From a virus (lineage: Duplodnaviria > Heunggongvirae > Uroviricota > Caudoviricetes), in the IMG/VR virus record IMGVR_UViG_2541047718_000017: a stretch of DNA of 22,358 bases. One strand, given 5' to 3'. Each line of letters begins with the position of its first letter. Position 1 is the first letter of the stretch. The notes under the pieces were generated by a model, which was not told where the DNA came from, searched no databases, and saw only the letters and a list, made by a program, of their open reading frames with translations. Shown here one piece after another: positions 1,411 to 22,358 of this stretch. The position numbers and the translations under genes were made by a program.

Positions 1411-1892
1411 GACAGCAGCCCTCCCACCGTTTTACTGATATCGCTTAAGGCAGACGTTGCCGTGTCCTGCAGATTATTCAGTTGCGCACTGAGATCACCG
1501 AACATATCGGACAGGGATTCATCCACTCGTTTGAGCGACAGGGTGAACTCAATCCGGCGCGGCATACCGTCGCGGAAAAACTCCGTTTTAGTCTGATTCA
1601 GTCCCTCAATCACATACATGCCGTAAATCGTGCCGCTGCCTTCAATCAGGGGCCATGCTTTCCCCTGTTCTGCCATCTGCTCCAGTGCCAGCAACGACAG
1701 CCTGCCGCCTGTTATTTCCGGCATAAGAACACCGGAAAGCGTCAGCATGTCGTTTTCCGGTCCCAGAAACTGCGTGGACGGACGTCGGTTTACCCGACTG
1801 TTTGCCGCATGTCGCCAGCTGCGTTGATACTGCAGTTCCTGATACGGAACGGTGCGCAGCATAAACACGTACAATCCCAGCACCATCATCAT
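1407..1892 (-). CDS. U: tail protein U
   Basis: 161-aa ORF directly downstream of T with overlapping stop/start; N-terminus resembles P2 gpU. Confidence 0.88.
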   Translation of the reverse strand: MMMVLGLYVFMLRTVPYQELQYQRSWRHAANSRVNRRPSTQFLGPENDMLTLSGVLMPEITGGRLSLLALEQMAEQGKAWPLIEGSGTIYGMYVIEGLNQTKTEFFRDGMPRRIEFTLSLKRVDESLSDMFGDLSAQLNNLQDTATSALSDISKTVGGLLS

Positions 1893-4800
1893 GCGTCGTA
1901 TCCCCCCTGATCGCTGTAGTTACTCCTGGCTTTTGCCTTCAGCCTGCGTTCACGTTCATCAAGCTGGCGTGCCACCTCCCGCGCAATATCCTGCGCACTT
2001 TGTCCTGGCTGCGTCTGAATGATGATCTGCGTCGGTGCCTCAATCCGTTGAACGAGCGGCACAGTGGCTGCGCGACTCACAATTGCTTCTCCACCTTTCG
2101 CGGGAAGTGCCAAAGGGTGCAACGGTGGAAGCTCTGCTGGCGCGGCAGCAACGCCCATCATTCCGGCAACAACGGCAGCCAGTGCAGCTGTATTTCTCCG
2201 GCTGGTCACATTTGCCGGGCCGTTAACAATTTCCGGCCCGTTTTCACCGACGATGCCAAACTGCCCTCGCGGGATATACCCGCCGCTGTCATACATCCCC
2301 GCAAAGCCATATCCCCATGATGGAAAACCACCCGATGGCATCATCACTTTACCGTCTGCATTCACCGTCGCAGGTTGCTGACGCGTCACGCTTTCCGGCA
2401 GTTTTGCCTTTGCGGCCTCTTTACTGACAATGCCGAGCTTCTCCAGCAACCAGGAAACGCCGGATTTCAGGGAGTCCAGCGGATGCATGACCATATTCAG
2501 CCCTTCCGCCAGTGCCTCCCCGAATCGCCGCCCCATTGCCGCTGCACTCTGCAGTTCGGCAGAGGTCGACTTAACGGGCGTCAGCAGATCAGTAAACCAG
2601 CCCCACAGCGCCTGTACTTTGTCGCCAATCCACTGAAACACAGGCTTAAGTGGTTCGAATGCAGCACTGATGGGACCTGCCGCCGCTTTGAATCCTTCCA
2701 CCACGCCACCGAGAAATGCGGTGATGGGTTGCCAGTATTTCCAGACAACCAGCGCCACGCCCGCCAGTGCAGTAACCACAAGACCTATCGGACTGAGCAG
2801 AGCACCTAACAGACCAGATATGGCATACAGGGCAACGCGCAGCATCGCCAGCGGACCAGATGCAAGCACACGAAGCACCGCGCCTGCGGCAGCCAGTCCA
2901 CCGCGCAGTACCGCCAGAGGATTCATAAACATCACAGCAACAGCACGTAAACCGGATAATCCAGACCGCAAAAGTGCAACCGGCGCACCTGCTACAGTTT
3001 TAAGGACATTTCCCGTCAGTGATGCCGTGCGGCGCAAAGACGACAACGGCGCAGTAAGTAAACCTGCGGCGTTGCCCGATGAAGCAAGCCCGCGTCGCAG
3101 CAGTGCCAGTGGTGCGCCAGCCAGCCAGGACAACGCGCTGCTGGTTCGAGTTACTGCTGCCGTAACGGAAGATAACGTTTTGATACCCAGCACAGAGAAT
3201 CCCAGACGGATCACTGCCAGCGGCCCCAGCACTGCAGCCAGCGCCACCGCTAAGGTGCCGAGGCCGACGGTAACCGCAGCCACAACAGCCGATGCTTTCA
3301 TCAGTGTGCCTGTCAGTTCCGGGTTAGCTTCCACCCAGCGACGCAACGCCCCCGTGACGCTTTTCACCGTGTACAGAATATCCATCAGCGGCTGGCGCAG
3401 CGTTTCGCCCAGGCTGCTGAAGGTGTTCTGCGCTCCGGTTTTGACCAGCAACCACTGCGCAGAAAGTGAATCCTTGTTAATGTCGGATTCTTTCTGCATG
3501 GAGCCGAGCGCATCATTGCCCGCTGTCAGTTTTAACTGACGCTGCAGTTCCGGCAGGTTGTTTGCCAGTTTCGCCGCGTCATCGCCAAACTCTTTACCAA
3601 ACAACATAGTCATGGCAGACAGGCGCTTGTCCTGCGGCAGCGCGTTTACCTTCTCCAGCACGCGCTGGATGGTTCCCATCGCATCCTTCGTCATCTGCTT
3701 TTCAATCACTTCAGGATTGAGTTTCAGCAGATTCATCCCTTCAAAGAAACTTTTGCTTTGCATGGTGGCAATGGACAATTCACACACCATCGCGTTTGCT
3801 GCACTGGCTGCAACCTCTGGCGCAGCGCCCAGTGTCAGGAAGGTGGAACCCAGCGCCGCCGCTTTACGATAATCCAGACGGTCAGCCACACCGCCCAGAC
3901 GTTGCATCACATCAATGATGTCTGCCCCTTTCGACATGGCGTTATCATCCAGATAGTTCAGCGCATCACCGAGCTGTTCAATATTGCGGGTGGGGATTTT
4001 GTAGAGCTGGGCGATTTTCCCCAGACTTTCTGACAGTTCATCCGCTGGCAGCTCAAAGGCTGTTGCCGCCTTTGCTGCCGTACTGGCGAAGGCCAGCAGG
4101 TCACGTTTCTGATCTTCCCAACTGTCGTCAGGGTTTGCGACGTTCATGCGCGCGCCACCTTCAACCAGTGCAGCGAAATCCACAGCACCGTTTTCCATCG
4201 GCAACTGTTCGCTGGCAGCCTTGATGGCATCCTGCATTTCATAAAAACGTGCAGTGCGGTTGCCATTATCGTCACGCAGACCATTGACCTGCTTTGCCAC
4301 ACCTTTCATGGCATCTTCCATGCTGGTATAGCTTTTTACTGCCGCCATCACTGGTGCGCCCATTGCCAGCCCTGCAGCCGTGGTGGTGGCTCCGGCACCT
4401 GCAATACGATCACGCACCTCCAGCGAACGGGCATAACTGGCACGCGCTGCATTCATCCTGCGCTGAGCTTCCCCCAGTCGCTTCAGCCGCGCCTCCTGTT
4501 TCGAAAGTTCCTGGTTATAACGTGATGTTTCACGGGCTAAACGGGCAGTTGCTCCCGCATCGTCTTTCGCAGAAATTCCCGCCCGGTACAGTTCAGCACG
4601 CACAAGCGCCGTCTGCTGCTGCAGCTTTTTCTGGCGTTCTTCCAGGCGCTGAACAGCCAGCCGTTGACGGCCCAGAGCAACAACCTGACGTTGCGAAGGC
4701 GGCCCCATCGCTCCCAGTTCCTGACTGAGCAAATTTGCACGCTGGCGGGCATAGTTCAGCCTGTCGCCTAATTTCTGATTTTCTGCCTGCAGCTTTCGGA

Positions 4801-4966
4801 AGCTGTCCAGACTGCTCCCGGCCTGATCAAGCTGCTTTATTGCATCGCGGGATTTTTTGACAGCAGCAGCCAGTTCTCTTGAACTGGCCTGCGCAGATCG
4901 AAATGGGCGGGTGAGCTTGTCAACCGCATTAAGAATGACCTGCAGACGCAGGTTGTTATCACTCAT
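1889..4966 (-). CDS. T: tail tape measure protein
   Basis: 1025-aa ORF; coiled-coil-rich N-terminal third, Gly/Ala/Leu-rich repeated hydrophobic segments in the middle, position between E/E' and U; typical of P2 gpT. Confidence 0.92.
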   Translation of the reverse strand: MSDNNLRLQVILNAVDKLTRPFRSAQASSRELAAAVKKSRDAIKQLDQAGSSLDSFRKLQAENQKLGDRLNYARQRANLLSQELGAMGPPSQRQVVALGRQRLAVQRLEERQKKLQQQTALVRAELYRAGISAKDDAGATARLARETSRYNQELSKQEARLKRLGEAQRRMNAARASYARSLEVRDRIAGAGATTTAAGLAMGAPVMAAVKSYTSMEDAMKGVAKQVNGLRDDNGNRTARFYEMQDAIKAASEQLPMENGAVDFAALVEGGARMNVANPDDSWEDQKRDLLAFASTAAKAATAFELPADELSESLGKIAQLYKIPTRNIEQLGDALNYLDDNAMSKGADIIDVMQRLGGVADRLDYRKAAALGSTFLTLGAAPEVAASAANAMVCELSIATMQSKSFFEGMNLLKLNPEVIEKQMTKDAMGTIQRVLEKVNALPQDKRLSAMTMLFGKEFGDDAAKLANNLPELQRQLKLTAGNDALGSMQKESDINKDSLSAQWLLVKTGAQNTFSSLGETLRQPLMDILYTVKSVTGALRRWVEANPELTGTLMKASAVVAAVTVGLGTLAVALAAVLGPLAVIRLGFSVLGIKTLSSVTAAVTRTSSALSWLAGAPLALLRRGLASSGNAAGLLTAPLSSLRRTASLTGNVLKTVAGAPVALLRSGLSGLRAVAVMFMNPLAVLRGGLAAAGAVLRVLASGPLAMLRVALYAISGLLGALLSPIGLVVTALAGVALVVWKYWQPITAFLGGVVEGFKAAAGPISAAFEPLKPVFQWIGDKVQALWGWFTDLLTPVKSTSAELQSAAAMGRRFGEALAEGLNMVMHPLDSLKSGVSWLLEKLGIVSKEAAKAKLPESVTRQQPATVNADGKVMMPSGGFPSWGYGFAGMYDSGGYIPRGQFGIVGENGPEIVNGPANVTSRRNTAALAAVVAGMMGVAAAPAELPPLHPLALPAKGGEAIVSRAATVPLVQRIEAPTQIIIQTQPGQSAQDIAREVARQLDERERRLKAKARSNYSDQGGYDA

Positions 4967-5395
4967 CGTTGGCCCCGCTTCTCTGAATCGCTTTATACCG
5001 CCATTCCAGCACTTCGGTCAGCGGCATAACGTCAGTAACGGATGGCGGCCAGTGAAAAATGGTGGCGATATCTGCCACCAGATCGTCAACCGTCAGGCTG
5101 TCGGTAAACCGGCAAGCACCGACTTCTTCAACAAAAAAGTGACAACCTCAACCGACATGGCAGTGAGATCTGCCGGGTCCATCTCTGCAATTTCCTGTGC
5201 AGTCAGTGCCGGACTGGAGATGCGGGGGAGCACGGTCATCATCGCGTTTACATCCATATCCATAATGGCCTGCAGGCGTGTACCGCGCAGCGCACCGGAC
5301 TGCGGTTTACGCAGCACAATTTCGGTGATTTCTGTTTTACCGCGCTTGATGGGGGTATCCAGTTGAATGGTCTTTTCAGTCTGCTTATCGCTCAT
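4959..5395 (-). CDS. E': tail assembly chaperone E+E' (programmed -1 frameshift product, about 145 aa)
   Basis: T_TTT_TTG heptamer on the minus strand at 5138..5132 in the E frame (ACT TTT TTG); the -1 frame stays open for 57 codons to a TGA at 4961..4959, overlapping the T start (4966). Manually translated. Confidence 0.72.
5093..5395 (-). CDS. E: tail assembly chaperone E (zero-frame product)
   Basis: 100-aa ORF between FII and T; the slippery heptamer lies near its 3' end. Confidence 0.88.
   Translation of the reverse strand: MSDKQTEKTIQLDTPIKRGKTEITEIVLRKPQSGALRGTRLQAIMDMDVNAMMTVLPRISSPALTAQEIAEMDPADLTAMSVEVVTFLLKKSVLAGLPTA
5132..5138 (-). other. -1 ribosomal frameshift slippery heptamer TTTTTTG (E to E')
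   Basis: Plus strand reads caaaaaa; X_XXY_YYZ register matches the E reading frame. Confidence 0.7.
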
Positions 5396-5449: not shown

Positions 5450-5965
5450 TCAGAGGCCGAGGGCGTTGCGGTGCGCTTCCATCAGGTCCACACCGTCCAC
5501 AATTTCCACCATGTTGATAAGGTCCACTTCATAGAGCACCTCACCATTGATGGTCAGCTTCGCGTAGCTGTTGGTACTGGTCACTTTGGTGGTGTTGCTT
5601 TCGCCCGTCTTCCACTCGCCGGAATCCACTTCTTTGTGACGTCCACGCACGACAAGCTCCACGGCCTGCACTTCCCCGGTATCGTCACGCTGAATAGAGC
5701 CGGTAAAGCGCAGCTGGATGCCATCCACCGTGGCTTTACCCATCTGTTTAAACAGCAGCAATTCAGTACCACCAATGGAAAATTCTGTATCCAGCGCACT
5801 GTCATCAAGCCCCAGATCCACATCCACCGCACCCGGCATTCCGCCGCCGCGATACTTCTCATATTTGCGGGTAAATTTCGGCAGCGTCAGCGACTCAACG
5901 ATCCCCTGCCAGTTGTTCCCGTCGTTAAACAGGTTCAGGTGTTTTAATTTGCGTGGTAAAGCCAT
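5450..5965 (-). CDS. FII: tail tube protein
   Basis: 171-aa ORF; position and translation consistent with P2 gpFII. Confidence 0.9.
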   Translation of the reverse strand: MALPRKLKHLNLFNDGNNWQGIVESLTLPKFTRKYEKYRGGGMPGAVDVDLGLDDSALDTEFSIGGTELLLFKQMGKATVDGIQLRFTGSIQRDDTGEVQAVELVVRGRHKEVDSGEWKTGESNTTKVTSTNSYAKLTINGEVLYEVDLINMVEIVDGVDLMEAHRNALGL

Positions 5966-5974
5966 GTTGTCCCC

Positions 5975-6195
5975 TTACGCGCTGACCTGGCTGGCGAAAT
6001 TAACCAGGTACTGATCGGTGATGCGCTGACGCAGCATCAGGTTTTCAAGTGGCGGCACTGGCGTGTAGTCGTAGTCGATGGTGAGTTTTCCGGCTTTCAG
6101 CGTGTCTTTGTCGTTCACCGACTCATCCAGCCAGCAATCACCACCAATGAGATAGCCCTGACTGACCAGGCTGCGCATTTTGGCGCGGATACCTT
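5975..6195 (-). pseudogene. FI: tail sheath protein FI, detached C-terminal fragment (about 71 codons)
   Basis: ...[71 protein letters not shown] matches the P2 FI C-terminus; no FI-like sequence upstream of the junction at about 6194; the track ORF extends to 6337 only because no stop intervenes. Confidence 0.85.
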
Positions 6196-6207
6196 GGTTT
6201 GGGAGAA
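6182..6207 (+). other. hybrid invertase crossover site (junction A): FI-derived half GGCGCGGATACC, core TT, tail-fibre half GGTTTGGGAGAA
   Basis: 12-2-12 architecture; right half is the exact inverted repeat of 8045-8056; left half is sheath coding sequence. Confidence 0.7.
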
Positions 6208-6696
6208 GGCTCTGCATTACCGGTTGGGGTGCCTGTTCCGTGGCCTTCAGCCACTCCGCCAACAGGCTGGCTGAAATGCAACGGTGCCGCTTTTTCTGCT
6301 GAAGAATACCCGGAACTGGCAAAGGCTTATCCGACAAATAAATTGCCTGATTTACGTGGTGAGTTTATTCGTGGCTGGGATGACGGGCGTGGTATTGATG
6401 CTGTACGTGCCTTGCTAAGTCTTCAGAATGGAGGAGTGGAATCACACACCCACCAAGGGCAGCTCTTCAGAGTTAGTGATTATCGTACAAAAGAAATACC
6501 AGCATCAGAAGTTATGGGAAGAGGATATATTGCAAGCCTGACGCCGGGTGCTGATAGCCCACTTGATTTTGATGATTATTCTGTATCTTCTAATCCAAAT
6601 GGATATTTTGTCGGGAATCAGAGAACAACAGCATATGGGATAAATGAAACCCGTCCACGGAATATTGCATTTAACTATATCGTGAGGGCTGCCTGA
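6196..6696 (+). CDS. tail fibre variable C-terminal exon (Hv), currently not joined to the H constant region
   Basis: Begins GGT TTG GGA GAA (GLGE) immediately after the crossover core; translation ...[42 protein letters not shown]...NYIVRAA is a typical enterobacterial side-tail-fibre C-terminal receptor-binding domain; upstream in-frame stop at about 6163. Confidence 0.8.
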
Positions 6697-7298
6697 TGAA
6701 TAAAGCCGTATTAAATAACGAACTCATTGCCATAAAAGCGGGAGACATTACCATTTATAATTATGATGGTGAAACGCGGGAATATATTTCCACATCAACT
6801 GAATATCTTGCGGTTGGCGTCGGTATCCCGGCATGTTCTTGTTTAGATGCACCAGTTACACATAAAGCTGGTTATGCAATCTGCCGTTCTGCAGATTTTA
6901 ACTCATGGGAATATGTGCCAGACCATCGCGGTGAAATCATCTATAGCACCGAAACAGGAGAATCGAAAGAAATCACAGCTCCGGGTGATTACCCTGAAAA
7001 TACAACCACTATCGCCCCGTTAACGCCATATGATAAATGGGATGGTGAGAAATGGGTGACGGATACTGAGGCACAGCATAGTGCCGCAGTAGACGCGGCA
7101 GAAGCACAGCGCCAGTCACTGATTGATGCAGCAATGGCTTCCATTAGTCTGATTCAGCTGAAATTACAGGCCGGACGGAAGTTGACGCAGGCAGAAACAA
7201 CCCGACTTAACGCCGTGCTGGATTACATTGACGCGGTGGCGGCAACAGATACCAGCACCGCGCCGGATGTCATCTGGCCTGAACTGCCGGAGGCGTAG
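6696..7298 (+). CDS. tail fibre assembly chaperone (Tfa / Mu U-like) for Hv
   Basis: 200-aa ORF coupled to the Hv stop; C-terminal ...DYIDAVAATDTSTAPDVIWPELPEA motif typical of Tfa proteins. Confidence 0.85.
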   Translation: MNKAVLNNELIAIKAGDITIYNYDGETREYISTSTEYLAVGVGIPACSCLDAPVTHKAGYAICRSADFNSWEYVPDHRGEIIYSTETGESKEITAPGDYPENTTTIAPLTPYDKWDGEKWVTDTEAQHSAAVDAAEAQRQSLIDAAMASISLIQLKLQAGRKLTQAETTRLNAVLDYIDAVAATDTSTAPDVIWPELPEA

Positions 7299-7707
7299 GC
7301 CATTCAATATCTGGCGCACCGGTAGTATCGACTAGCTCCAGTGCGTCCAGATAATCCAGCCACGAATTATATTGCGCCAGTTCCTCGCTTTTCAGACGAC
7401 CAATAGCGGCTTTACCGGGCCATTGTTTACTGTTCATGTATTCGTTGGCCTGATTAAGCAATAATTGCCTTTCTGATTCTGCCTGTTGAATAAGTTCTTC
7501 ATGTGATGGTGGAGGTATTAGTGCCCATGTGGGTAATCCATTTTTTCCTGCAACACGAATTTTGTCATCTGGAGGCGTATTGATTGCAAATTCATTATAA
7601 ACATCATCACTGACAGCCAGAGCATCATCTGGCCATGAATTTGCATTAATGTAATCATCCTTAAGTGCAGGATTCACAAAAATGTTTAAAGATGGACTAT
7701 AAAACAT
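7270..7707 (-). CDS. alternative tail fibre assembly chaperone (Tfa', Mu U'-like)
   Basis: 145-aa ORF convergent with and overlapping tfa by 29 bp; C-terminal ...DYLDALELVDTTGAPDIEWPTPPA motif. Confidence 0.85.
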   Translation of the reverse strand: MFYSPSLNIFVNPALKDDYINANSWPDDALAVSDDVYNEFAINTPPDDKIRVAGKNGLPTWALIPPPSHEELIQQAESERQLLLNQANEYMNSKQWPGKAAIGRLKSEELAQYNSWLDYLDALELVDTTGAPDIEWPTPPAVQAR

Positions 7708-7708
7708 A

Positions 7709-8056
7709 TTACACCCCTATAGCGATATAACGACCTAATACAGCGTTTACAGCAGTCGCTATGCTTGAAAAACCGCGGAACTGATTTGATGTAATTGCAG
7801 AAGCCGACAGGATTCCTGCGCCTGAAGGTGTATGCCCCACATGACTAACTATCATTCCATAACATGCTGACGGAAAGGCAAAAGGAAAATCGTTAAGATA
7901 TCCGGCATCTTCACCACCAGACCCACCAAATCTCGCCTGCCCCCACTGAATAATCAGTGTTCTCCGGGAACCTGAAATAATTAACGGGATCGTTACATAC
8001 CCATTCAGGCCAATGACACCCGATGCAGTGCCAGCCAGAGATAATTCTCCCAAACC
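7709..8056 (-). CDS. alternative tail fibre variable C-terminal exon (Hv')
   Basis: Coding starts at the crossover core with the same GGT TTG GGA GAA (GLGE) as Hv; followed by tfa'. Codons upstream of 8056 in the track ORF (MMPVSCYLCIFLNV) lie in the outer half-site and are probably not coding. Confidence 0.78.
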   Translation of the reverse strand, partial: GLGELSLAGTASGVIGLNGYVTIPLIISGSRRTLIIQWGQARFGGSGGEDAGYLNDFPFAFPSACYGMIVSHVGHTPSGAGILSASAITSNQFRGFSSIATAVNAVLGRYIAIGV

Positions 8057-8070
8057 AACGTTTAAGAAAA
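8045..8070 (+). other. invertase crossover site (gix/hix/pix-like): TTCTCCCAAACC AA CGTTTAAGAAAA
   Basis: 12-2-12 near-dyad resembling the remembered hix/gix consensus (TTCTnnAAAACC-NN-GGTTT...); inner half is a perfect inverted repeat of 6196-6207; lies 56 bp upstream of the invertase start. Confidence 0.75.
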
Positions 8071-8125
8071 TGCAGAGGTAACAGCTAACTGGCATCATCT
8101 CCGGTTTTTATTCAGGGGGATGATC

Positions 8126-8692
8126 ATGCTTATTGGCTATGTACGCGTGTCAACAAATGACCAGAACACCGATTTGCAACGTAATGCACTGAACTGCGCG
8201 GGATGTGAGCAGATTTTTGAGGACAAAATCAGTGGCACTAAGTCCGACAGACCGGGGCTGAAAAAACTACTCAGGACACTATCGGCAGGAGACACGCTGG
8301 TTGTCTGGAAGCTGGACAGGTTGGGGCGCAGTATGCGGCATCTTGTTACGCTGATAGAAGAGTTGCGCCAGCGTGGTGTGAATTTCAGAAGCCTGACTGA
8401 CAGTATTGATACCAGTACCCCAATGGGCCGTTTCTTTTTTCATGTCATGGGTGCCCTGGCTGAAATGGAACGCGAACTGATAGTTGAACGTACCAGGGCA
8501 GGGCTGGCTGCAGCTCGTGCCAAAGGCAGAGTAGGTGGACGCCGTCCTAAGTTGACCACCGAACAGTGGGCACAGATTGGGCGTTTACTCGAGGCCGGAG
8601 AATCAAGACAGCGTATTGCACTGATTTTTGATGTAGGCGTTTCTACCATTTATAGAAAATTTCCGGCAAATAAGATCAATGAATCCCCCTGA
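8126..8692 (+). CDS. serine-recombinase DNA invertase (Gin/Pin/Cin/Hin family)
   Basis: MLIGYVRVSTNDQNTDLQRNAL...VVWKLDRLGRSMRHL...MGRFFFHVMGALAEMERELIVERT... matches Gin/Pin-type invertases from memory, including the catalytic Ser in YVRVST and a C-terminal HTH. Start taken at the internal ATG (track start 8120). Confidence 0.92.
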   Translation: MLIGYVRVSTNDQNTDLQRNALNCAGCEQIFEDKISGTKSDRPGLKKLLRTLSAGDTLVVWKLDRLGRSMRHLVTLIEELRQRGVNFRSLTDSIDTSTPMGRFFFHVMGALAEMERELIVERTRAGLAAARAKGRVGGRRPKLTTEQWAQIGRLLEAGESRQRIALIFDVGVSTIYRKFPANKINESP

Positions 8693-8740
8693 ATCAGCAT
8701 TATGTTGATTATCCCTGCAAGCAGACAAATACCGTTATTT

Positions 8741-8758
8741 TGTGTGAATAACGACACA
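8741..8758 (+). promoter_or_regulatory. Ogr-box (TGT-N12-ACA) of late promoter P_F upstream of FI
   Basis: TGTgtgaataacgacACA with 5-bp dyad arms, in the 143-bp gap between invertase and FI start, about 85 bp upstream of the FI ATG (8835). Confidence 0.6.
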
Positions 8759-8834
8759 ACTGCGCTTAGCTGTTTGTCAGGCACAATCACTTCAACATAG
8801 GGCGAAGCCTAATCCAATCAGGAGGTTCGCCACT

Positions 8835-9797
8835 ATGGCTCAGGATTACCACCACGGGGTGCGCGTTGTTGAAGTCAACGAAGGTACCCGATCTATTACC
8901 ACGGTGAGCACCGCCATCGTGGGTATGGTCTGCACGGGCGATGATGCCGATGCAAAAATGTTTCCTCTTAATAAACCCGTGCTGATCACTGATGTGCTGA
9001 CTGCCAGCGGTAAAGCGGGTGAGTCAGGTACTCTGGCCCGTTCGCTGGATGCCATCGCTGACCAGGCAAAACCCGTGACCATTGTTGTGCGTGTGCCGCA
9101 GGGTGAAACGGAAGACGAAACCACGACCAATATCATCGGCGCAGTGACTGCTGAAGGTAAAAAAACAGGTATGAAAGCCCTGTTATCTGCCCAGTCACAG
9201 CTCGGCGTTAAACCGCGCATTCTCGGCGTGCCAGGCCACGACACCAAGGCGGTAGCTACTGAGTTGCTGAGCGTGGCGCAAAGCCTGCGTGGATTTGCTT
9301 ACCTGTCAGCGTATGGCTGCAAGACAGTGCAGGAGGCGATCACTTACCGCGAAAACTTCAGCCAGCGCGAAGGGATGCTGATCTGGCCTGACTTTACTGG
9401 CTGGGACACGGTGCTGAATGCCGAAGCAACGGCATATGCCACCGCCCGTGCGCTTGGTCTGCGCGCCAAAATTGACGAGCAGACCGGATGGCACAAAAGC
9501 CTGTCCAACGTGGGCGTGAACGGTGTCACCGGAATTTCTGCAGATGTGTTCTGGGATCTGCAGGACCCGGCAACCGATGCAGGTCTGCTGAACCAGAACG
9601 ACGTCACCACGCTTGTGCGTAAAGACGGTTTCCGCTTCTGGGGTTCCCGCTGCCTGAGTGATGACCCGCTCTTTGCCTTCGAAAACTACACCCGCACGGC
9701 GCAGGTGCTGATGGACACGATGGCAGAAGCACACATGTGGGCGGTGGATAAACCGCTTAACCCGTCGCTGGCCCGCGACATTATCGAAGGTATGTGA
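8835..9797 (+). pseudogene. FI: tail sheath protein FI, N-terminal 319 codons, truncated at the inversion junction
   Basis: MAQDYHHGVRVVEVNEGTRSITTVSTAIVGMVCTGDDADAKMFPLNKPVLITDV... is near-collinear with the P2 FI N-terminus; reading frame ends ...RDIIEG-M-stop two codons after the crossover core. Confidence 0.88.
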
Positions 9798-22154: not shown

Positions 22155-22358
22155 TGAACCGCCCCGGGAATCCTGGAGACTAAACTTCCTGAGAAAGAGG
22201 TAAACAGGATGACTAAAAATACTCGTTTTTCCCCCGAAGTCCGTCAACGGGCAGTCCGTATGGTTCTGGAAAGTCAGAGCGAATATGACTCACAATGGGC
22301 GACAATTTGTTCCATTGCTCCAAAGATTGGCTGTACGCCGGAGACTCTGCGTGTCTGG
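22155..22358 (+). mobile_element. IS3-family insertion sequence, left end (IS629/IS1203/IS3411-like), truncated by the window edge
   Basis: Terminal TGAACCGCCCCGGGAATCCTGGAGACTAAACTTCC matches the IS629-group left inverted repeat as I remember it, followed by the orfA start. Confidence 0.8.
22209..22358 (+). CDS. IS3-family transposase OrfA (N-terminal HTH part, partial)
   Basis: Translation [50 protein letters not shown] is characteristic of IS629-group OrfA. Confidence 0.8.

Follow-up and report, generated by a model that had tools for sequence, protein, structure and literature searches.

Sequence evidence for programmed −1 ribosomal frameshifting of the P2 type at a tail-assembly chaperone gene in a P2-like Escherichia coli prophage

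We analysed a 22,358-nucleotide stretch of viral DNA (hereafter, the window) and find that a slippery site within it is very probably the site of a programmed −1 ribosomal frameshift of the P2 type; it lies in a tail-assembly chaperone gene carried by a P2-like E. coli prophage. An initial annotation had read the site, which precedes the tape-measure gene, as the conserved tail-chaperone frameshift (E / E+E′), and the comparative data support that reading. It rests on matches of the two halves to PF10109 and PF06528, on gene order, on a gapless alignment with the P2 fusion protein, on the frameshift site annotated in P2, on slippery heptamers at 92 of 93 loci and on purifying selection that switches frame. 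The frameshift is already known, being the homologue of an experimentally established and widely conserved recoding event: the tail-chaperone frameshift is among the most conserved recoding events of tailed phages, and its P2 version has been shown by experiment.

Anatomy of the locus

Judged by sequence, the source of the window is a P2-like (Peduoviridae, Wadgaonvirus-like) prophage of E. coli. The window is 100% identical to two complete E. coli chromosomes, and the blocks it shares with Escherichia phage 500465-1 (Wadgaonvirus, Peduoviridae) are 98–99% identical. The closest relatives of the locus itself lie in the Wadgaonvirus, Elveevirus and Felsduovirus groups, not in Peduovirus. At a coverage of at least 80%, the E/E′ locus is carried by 977 of 5426 complete E. 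coli genomes (about 18%).

All genes near the slip site are on the minus strand. Pfam and RefSeq place them in the order FII (tube), E/E′, T (tape measure), U and D, which is the FETUD order of P2; the neighbours U and D match PF06995 (gpU) and PF05954 (gpD), respectively. The features of the region are as follows.

5450..5965, minus strand: gene FII, tail tube protein, directly upstream of E (Pfam PF04985, E = 8.8e-60)
5093..5395, minus strand: gene E, 0-frame tail assembly chaperone, 100 aa (ORF and translation; Pfam PF10109; PHROG 103)
5132..5138, minus strand: slippery heptamer T_TTT_TTG in X_XXY_YYZ register (direct reading; the aligned P2 heptamer is identical)
5093..5131, minus strand: dual-coding overlap of the E tail (frame 0) and the beginning of E′ (frame −1) (comparison with Fels-2)
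4959..5132, minus strand: E′, −1 frame extension of 57 codons plus TGA (4961..4959), without a start of its own (translation; PF06528; PHROG 1756 and 6416)
4959..5395, minus strand: predicted E+E′ fusion, join(5395..5132, 5132..4959), 145 aa, with G5132 read twice (gapless alignment with P2 gpE+E′; tblastn)
1889..4966, minus strand: gene T, tail tape measure protein, 1025 aa, whose start overlaps the E′ stop (Pfam PF10145; RefSeq)

The arrangement of these elements is established directly from the letters, and all figures given in the initial annotation proved right. Gene E has AGGA ahead of its ATG and ends in TGA at 5095..5093. As had been stated, T_TTT_TTG (5138..5132 on the minus strand) stands in the correct register 12 codons before this stop. 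Codon 86 (ACT) contributes the first T as its third base, so that TTT occupies the P site and TTG the A site, and exactly 12 sense codons (LKKSVLAGLPTA) separate the heptamer from the stop of E. Read from G5132, the −1 frame encodes VEEVGACRF...SGANDE (VEEVGACRFTDSLTVDDLVADIATIFHWPPSVTDVMPLTEVLEWRYKAIQRSGANDE in full). It is open for 57 codons, with no stop interrupting E′ near the heptamer, and closes just within T as claimed, its TGA (4961..4959) falling within codons 2–3 of that gene (ATG 4966..4964). Going upstream from the heptamer, one finds the −1 frame closed after only 3 codons, which leaves a zone of ~17 codons in which a slip would be productive, and the +1 frame is closed after 13 codons. 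Between the opening of the −1 frame and the stop of E, that frame contains no ATG.

For the occurrence and efficiency of the slip at this locus, and for the chaperone roles of its products, we draw on work on P2 and lambda. Most ribosomes would read E to its stop and produce the 100-aa chaperone, while a minority would pause on U_UUU_UUG, where UUU is bound by tRNA-Phe in the P site and UUG by tRNA-Leu in the A site. Both tRNAs would then move one base in the 5′ direction and re-pair with UUU_UUU, so that the next codon would be GUU in the −1 frame. The product would be a 145-aa E+E′ protein with the junction ...VVTFL-VEEVG..., ending just within the tape-measure gene; the junction ...VVTFL-VEEVGACRF... 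is the outcome expected of simultaneous tandem slippage. After a slip on U_UUU_UUG, tRNA-Leu needs a wobble mismatch, a point that we counted against the model. The analogy with lambda gpG/gpGT suggests that the E part common to both products may coat or bind the tape-measure protein gpT, and the rarer E′ domain may recruit the tube protein FII. On the same analogy, tail assembly would need a fixed ratio of E to E+E′, and both proteins would be absent from the virion.

Homology of both halves and conservation of the slip site

Both halves of the predicted fusion have established homologues. Residues 9–88 of E match Pfam PF10109 (Phage_TAC_7, described as 'Phage tail assembly chaperone proteins, E, or 41 or 14') with 65.8 bits against a gathering score of 25, and E also matches PHROG 103 ('tail protein') with E = 1.8e-44. 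The −1 extension matches PF06528 (Phage_P2_GpE) across the full 37-position profile, with a score of 65.6 bits, well above the cut-off of 23, and E = 2.8e-18; it matches PHROG 1756 and 6416 in addition. Because the extension matches PF06528 independently of E, the −1 frame codes for protein. Aligned with gpE+E′ of P2, the window fusion runs without a gap over the junction (FLVEEVGA vs FLVAELGA), with 69/139 identities (50%) and E = 2e-51. A tblastn search with the predicted 145-aa fusion found 419 phage records, with full-length matches in 386, and the full-length matches listed always consist of two pieces in two frames. The phages in which this search showed the E′ frame to be conserved number in the hundreds and range from Enterobacterales to Burkholderia, Ralstonia, Pseudomonas and Vibrio. 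No relative of the fusion was found in the PDB at E ≤ 1, and no NCBIfam model matches the window fusion or the P2 fusion.

These matches bear on the reading that heptamer and open −1 frame coincide by chance alone, with E′ left untranslated. XXXYYYZ heptamers occur in the window at 2.95 per kb per strand, so that any such heptamer would fall in register within the 17-codon zone with a chance of ~5%, and TTTTTTG specifically with a chance of ~0.3%. The window sequence alone is thus only suggestive of a frameshift, and it is the comparative evidence that is decisive. The match of the −1 frame to a curated Pfam family (E = 2.8e-18), the conservation of E′ across hundreds of phages and the purifying selection in frame −1 described below effectively refute coincidence, to which we assign a vanishingly small probability.

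We surveyed the slip site at 93 loci, comprising 13 divergent relatives and 80 IMG/VR loci. E′ lies in frame −1 with an in-register slippery heptamer at 92 of them, including all 13 divergent relatives, where an X_XXY_YYZ heptamer stands in register within the overlap. The heptamer is TTTTTTG at 79 of the 93 loci (among them L008 and L015, in register), with TTTTTTA/C/T, G_GGA_AAG, C_CCT_TTC and A_AAT_TTT as variants. T_TTT_TTG is present in P2, Fels-2, SW9, phiE12-2 and phiCTX, T_TTT_TTC in a Yersinia phage and VP58.5, T_TTT_TTT in Vibrio 1F53 and G_GGA_AAG in a Mannheimia phage; C_CCT_TTC and A_AAT_TTT represent two further lineages. The sole exception, L095, has two frame changes, and L094 has an assembly gap; both irregularities look like errors or decay.

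The same survey weighs on transcriptional slippage, in which RNA polymerase would add one U in the T6 run, and ordinary translation of the altered mRNA would produce the junction ...VVTFF-VEEVG.... The site is indeed a homopolymeric run of six T, and bacterial transcriptional slippage on runs of A or T is known (review PMC5009743). That review, however, describes bacterial slippage on runs of nine A or T (PMC5009743), whereas the run here is six. Moreover, the non-homopolymeric heptamers of relatives (G_GGA_AAG, C_CCT_TTC and A_AAT_TTT) fit only tandem tRNA slippage, and the X_XXY_YYZ codon register is kept at 92/93 loci, although polymerase slippage needs no register. On this sequence evidence, transcriptional slippage appears unlikely, and we give it a very low probability.

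Selective constraint is frame-specific, as established by comparison with Fels-2. Upstream of the heptamer, synonymous/non-synonymous differences number 21/8 if frame 0 is read, compared with 2/27 for frame −1; past the stop of E, the frames change places, with 9/4 for frame −1 and 2/11 for frame 0. The substitution pattern indicates that the slip site is where purifying selection switches from frame 0 to frame −1. In the dual-coding overlap there are 0/36 differences, against 29/149 just upstream and ~7 expected (simple binomial ~4e-4, assuming independent sites). Among distant relatives, the 0-frame tail of E varies in length (4–17 codons) and in sequence, while the −1 reading remains alignable, and 10 of the first 18 residues of E′ are identical to those of P2.

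The separate-gene annotation

RefSeq has two separate genes and no frameshift at this locus, a point that we also counted against the model. E is named 'phage tail assembly protein', and the second gene is as follows.

4959..5078, minus strand: GTG-started CDS of 39 aa, 'GpE family phage tail protein', corresponding to the C-terminal part of E′ (RefSeq and several phage records)

The annotation implies that E′ is a small gene of its own, started at GTG 5078, and that no frameshift is required. It is found at the identical E. coli locus (RefSeq/PGAP) and in Cartapus, ST11-OXA245phi3.1, SW9, phiE12-2 and phiCTX, and many enterobacterial relatives have GTG or ATG at the position aligned with GTG 5078. 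However, GTG 5078, the only candidate start of E′, has no upstream Shine–Dalgarno sequence (cagcctgacggttgacgatctg GTG), unlike the genes E, FII, U and D, where the sequence is clear. At the aligned codon, the Mannheimia, VP58.5 and 1F53 phages encode Ile, Trp or Tyr and nonetheless retain the −1 arrangement and a heptamer. Constraint in frame −1 and conservation of residues also reach from GTG 5078 upstream to the heptamer; between the stop of E and GTG 5078, synonymous/non-synonymous counts in the −1 frame are 2/1, 3/0, 4/1 and 3/0. Finally, the P2 record describes a product that shares its amino terminus with gpE. We rejected independent initiation of E′ at GTG 5078, as the Shine–Dalgarno sequence is absent and the start codon is not conserved, and consider a separate gene most improbable.

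From these sequence comparisons, the 39-aa CDS is most likely an annotation shortcut rather than a separate gene, and it looks as if the PF06528 match drives it. RefSeq lists the CDS in the two inspected records, of E. coli and plasmid origin, that are identical or near-identical to the window locus, and 'GpE family phage tail protein' also stands under 6/6 sampled matches among the 977 E. coli genomes. With E′ annotated as a separate 39-aa gene, the predicted 145-aa E+E′ protein is therefore missing from those proteomes, and the practical value of the finding lies in annotation.

Stimulatory elements and state of the cassette

The initial annotation had suggested a stimulatory structure in 5080–5130. 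We found none there: a single-sequence fold of 5080–5131 has a minimum free energy of −13.5 kcal/mol, with z = −0.62. A single-sequence fold of 5040–5131 (92 nt) gave z = −1.96 and was judged negative for a stimulator. A comparative fold of 19 relatives yielded only a 5-bp hairpin, starting 53 nt downstream of the heptamer; we rejected it as a stimulator, as it is too distant for a classical one and is confounded by the conserved VADIAT peptide. The absence of a 3′ stimulatory structure was likewise counted against the model, though P2 is also without one, and PMC3091744 reports no hairpin for P2 or the Burkholderia P2-like phages.

Upstream of the heptamer, the comparison of relatives brought out one short element.

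5146..5149, minus strand: GAGG, Shine–Dalgarno-like motif and candidate stimulator, 7 nt 5′ of the heptamer (synonymous constraint)

GAGG or GGAGG stands exactly 7 nt before the heptamer in 52/63 distinct sequences. Within the motif, the Glu codon is GAG in 77 and GAA in 1 of 78 distinct relatives, while the other Glu codons of E favour GAA by ~3:1 (292 GAA, 96 GAG) and the Val codons flanking the motif use all four third bases; these codon counts are uncorrected for the relatedness of the sequences. The pattern suggests selection at the nucleotide level for a Shine–Dalgarno-like element upstream of the heptamer. As P2-like phages lack a 3′ structure yet are reported to shift more efficiently than lambda, a 5′ element may be proposed as the stimulator. 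That GAGG or GGAGG(UGGUC), 7 nt upstream of U_UUU_UUG, plays this part in P2-like phages is a tentative proposal that we regard as possible but rather doubtful. Its spacing of 7 nt compares with the 9–14 nt reported for −1 stimulation by a Shine–Dalgarno sequence (PMC5009743). If the proposal is true, this would be a Shine–Dalgarno stimulator working at a spacing below the range known for −1 shifts. The upstream GAGG constraint is a small lead, cheap to test, on stimulation without a 3′ structure.

In this prophage, a 3.6-kb segment (6189..9793) is inverted relative to phage 500465-1. One end of the inversion falls in the fibre gene, at the crossover site that the invertase normally uses (TTCTCACATACC TT GGTTTGGGAGAA), whose usual partner lies at 8045–8061. 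The other end is a quasi-site in the sheath gene FI, which shares only ATACC|TT with the crossover site. The inversion splits FI and the fibre gene, both of which RefSeq marks as pseudogenes, and detaches FII-E-T-U-D from its late promoter: the Ogr-type motif TGT-N12-ACA, the expected driver of FI-FII-E-T-U-D, now lies at 8741 and faces away. The frameshift cassette is intact but may be poorly expressed in the inverted arrangement. With FII-E-T-U-D deprived of its late promoter, and with broken genes for sheath and fibre, the slip site may therefore be silent or useless, and the prophage is unable to build tails unless the segment flips back.

Comparison with known systems

E. coli dnaX, which has a Shine–Dalgarno-like stimulator on the 5′ side, resembles the locus in that an X_XXY_YYZ heptamer serves for a tandem slip by −1 in bacteria; here a GAGG held by synonymous-site constraint lies upstream as a candidate stimulator. 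The heptamer is A_AAA_AAG in dnaX and U_UUU_UUG here; dnaX has a 3′ stem-loop, whereas none stands at a stimulatory distance here, and the GAGG spacing of 7 nt is outside the reported 9–14 nt.

Lambda slips on G_GGA_AAG. To our knowledge, no sequence similarity is to be expected between its gpG/gpGT and the E/E′ of the window, and its tail is that of a siphovirus, whereas the window prophage has a contractile tail (myovirus type). The likeness lies in the arrangement: two overlapping ORFs are flanked by the gene for the major tail or tube protein and by that for the tape measure, and a −1 slip near the end of the first yields an abundant short and a rare long product with a shared N-terminus. 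The window fits this lambda-type arrangement, with E and E′ overlapping upstream of T and the −1 shift near the end of E, and a chaperone role in tail length assembly would by analogy be shared. According to PMC5009743, which summarises the lambda work (Levin et al. 1993; Xu, Hendrix, Duda 2004, 2013, 2014), the tape-measure protein is the partner of the short lambda product and the tube protein that of the extension, and virions contain neither product. In long-tailed dsDNA phages more widely, an ORF pair upstream of the tape measure is linked by a −1, rarely a +1, shift; this G-T type frameshift is conserved, and that of P2-like phages is 2- to 3-fold more efficient than that of lambda (PMC5009743).

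P2 and the window share the order FII - E/E′ - T - U - D, TTTTTTG at the aligned codon, the −1 direction, a 57-codon extension that ends within the start of T, and the absence of a 3′ hairpin. They differ in overall identity, which is about 50% only, in the 0-frame tail of E after the slip (6 codons in P2 and 12 here, with unrelated sequences) and in the −4 codon, which is AAG(G) in P2 (AAGG) and GAG(G) here. Christie and colleagues reportedly put the efficiency of the P2 frameshift at about 10%, and are said to have found that the fusion is made and is essential for tail assembly. The P2 record AF063097 lists gpE together with a joined CDS for gpE+E′ ('shares amino terminus with gpE; -1 frameshift; essential tail protein') and marks the 'site of -1 translational frameshift' at a heptamer identical to that of the window, at the aligned codon. 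According to PMC3091744, which gives Christie et al. 2002 (J Bacteriol 184:6522) for gpE / gpE+E′ and the FETUD tail operon, a −1 shift at TTTTTTG in P2 yields a 91-aa E and a 142-aa E+E′; our reconstruction of P2 reproduces the published 91 aa and 142 aa.

In Fels-2 of Salmonella (STM2699 / STM2697.1; NC_010463), the fusion is 87% identical to that of the window, and the heptamer, the 36-nt overlap and the 12-codon tail of E are identical. The two differ by point substitutions only, mostly synonymous in the frame used, and the Fels-2 record states that a functional gpE+E′ is formed through translational slippage.

Inversion between the sheath and fibre genes

A 3.6-kb segment of the window is inverted relative to Escherichia phage 500465-1 (Wadgaonvirus). 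Within it lie the cassettes for the fibre C terminus, the genes for fibre assembly and for the DNA invertase, and four-fifths of the sheath gene FI, from its N-terminal end.

6189..9793, inverted segment
6189-6195 and 9787-9793, inversion junctions

Both FI and the fibre gene are split at the inversion, and RefSeq records them as pseudogenes. The fibre-gene end is a canonical invertase site, while the FI end is an internal quasi-site, the two having only ATACC|TT in common. Two complete E. coli chromosomes, NZ_CP032204 and NZ_OZ546943, carry the same inverted arrangement.

TGT-N12-ACA motifs, the type of site that Ogr binds in the late promoters of P2, are found 5' of V, between the divergent O and P genes, and 5' of the detached N-terminal fragment of FI.

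8741..8758 (+), TGT-N12-ACA motif
13307 and 19215/19273, further TGT-N12-ACA motifs

Owing to the inversion, the predicted FI promoter now points away from the tail genes FII-E-T-U-D.

Annotation of E' and departures among relatives

In RefSeq/PGAP, the stretch 4959..5078 (-) of E', the -1 frame extension of the tail chaperone gene E, is entered as a separate, GTG-started 'GpE family phage tail protein' of 39 residues. The record does not mark a programmed frameshift for E', yet it marks one for the neighbouring IS3 transposase.

22209..22358 (+), IS3-family transposase gene annotated with a programmed frameshift, starting 130 nt past the portal gene at the window edge

The locus is carried by 977 complete E. 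coli genomes, and all six matches sampled bear the same product name, 'GpE family phage tail protein'.

Among the 93 related loci surveyed, only one lacks the standard E/E' arrangement (IMGVR_UViG_2823426463_000001, about 850-1100). There, a single frame without a T-run carries through E into the beginning of E'; further along, the frame changes a second time. This departure could reflect sequencing errors, decay or a lineage in which E and E' are fused. In Mannheimia phage 1127AP1 (1119..1505), E/E' is followed by an extra hypothetical gene of 128 codons and gpU, with no tape-measure gene annotated in the annotated stretch; the overlap between E' and the tape-measure gene T is therefore not universal.

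Candidate signals around the slippery heptamer

Two elements lie on either side of the slippery heptamer T_TTT_TTG (5138..5132 (-)).

5060..5080 (-), terminator-like hairpin TGGTGGC-AGATATC-GCCACCA followed by TTTTTCA, within the E' coding region
5146..5149 (-), GAGG, 7 nt 5' of the heptamer

The 5-bp core of the hairpin is retained in all 19 relatives compared, with a few two-sided changes, but the hairpin overlaps the conserved VADIATIF peptide of E'. It might act as an attenuator of transcription into T-U-D, or it might be without meaning.

At the GAGG, 77 of 78 distinct relatives encode the glutamate with GAG. Elsewhere in E, GAA is favoured 3:1 over GAG, and the valine codons beside the GAGG vary freely. 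Judged from this codon usage, the GAGG is a candidate Shine-Dalgarno-like stimulator of frameshifting, although its 7-nt spacing falls below the published range of 9-14 nt.
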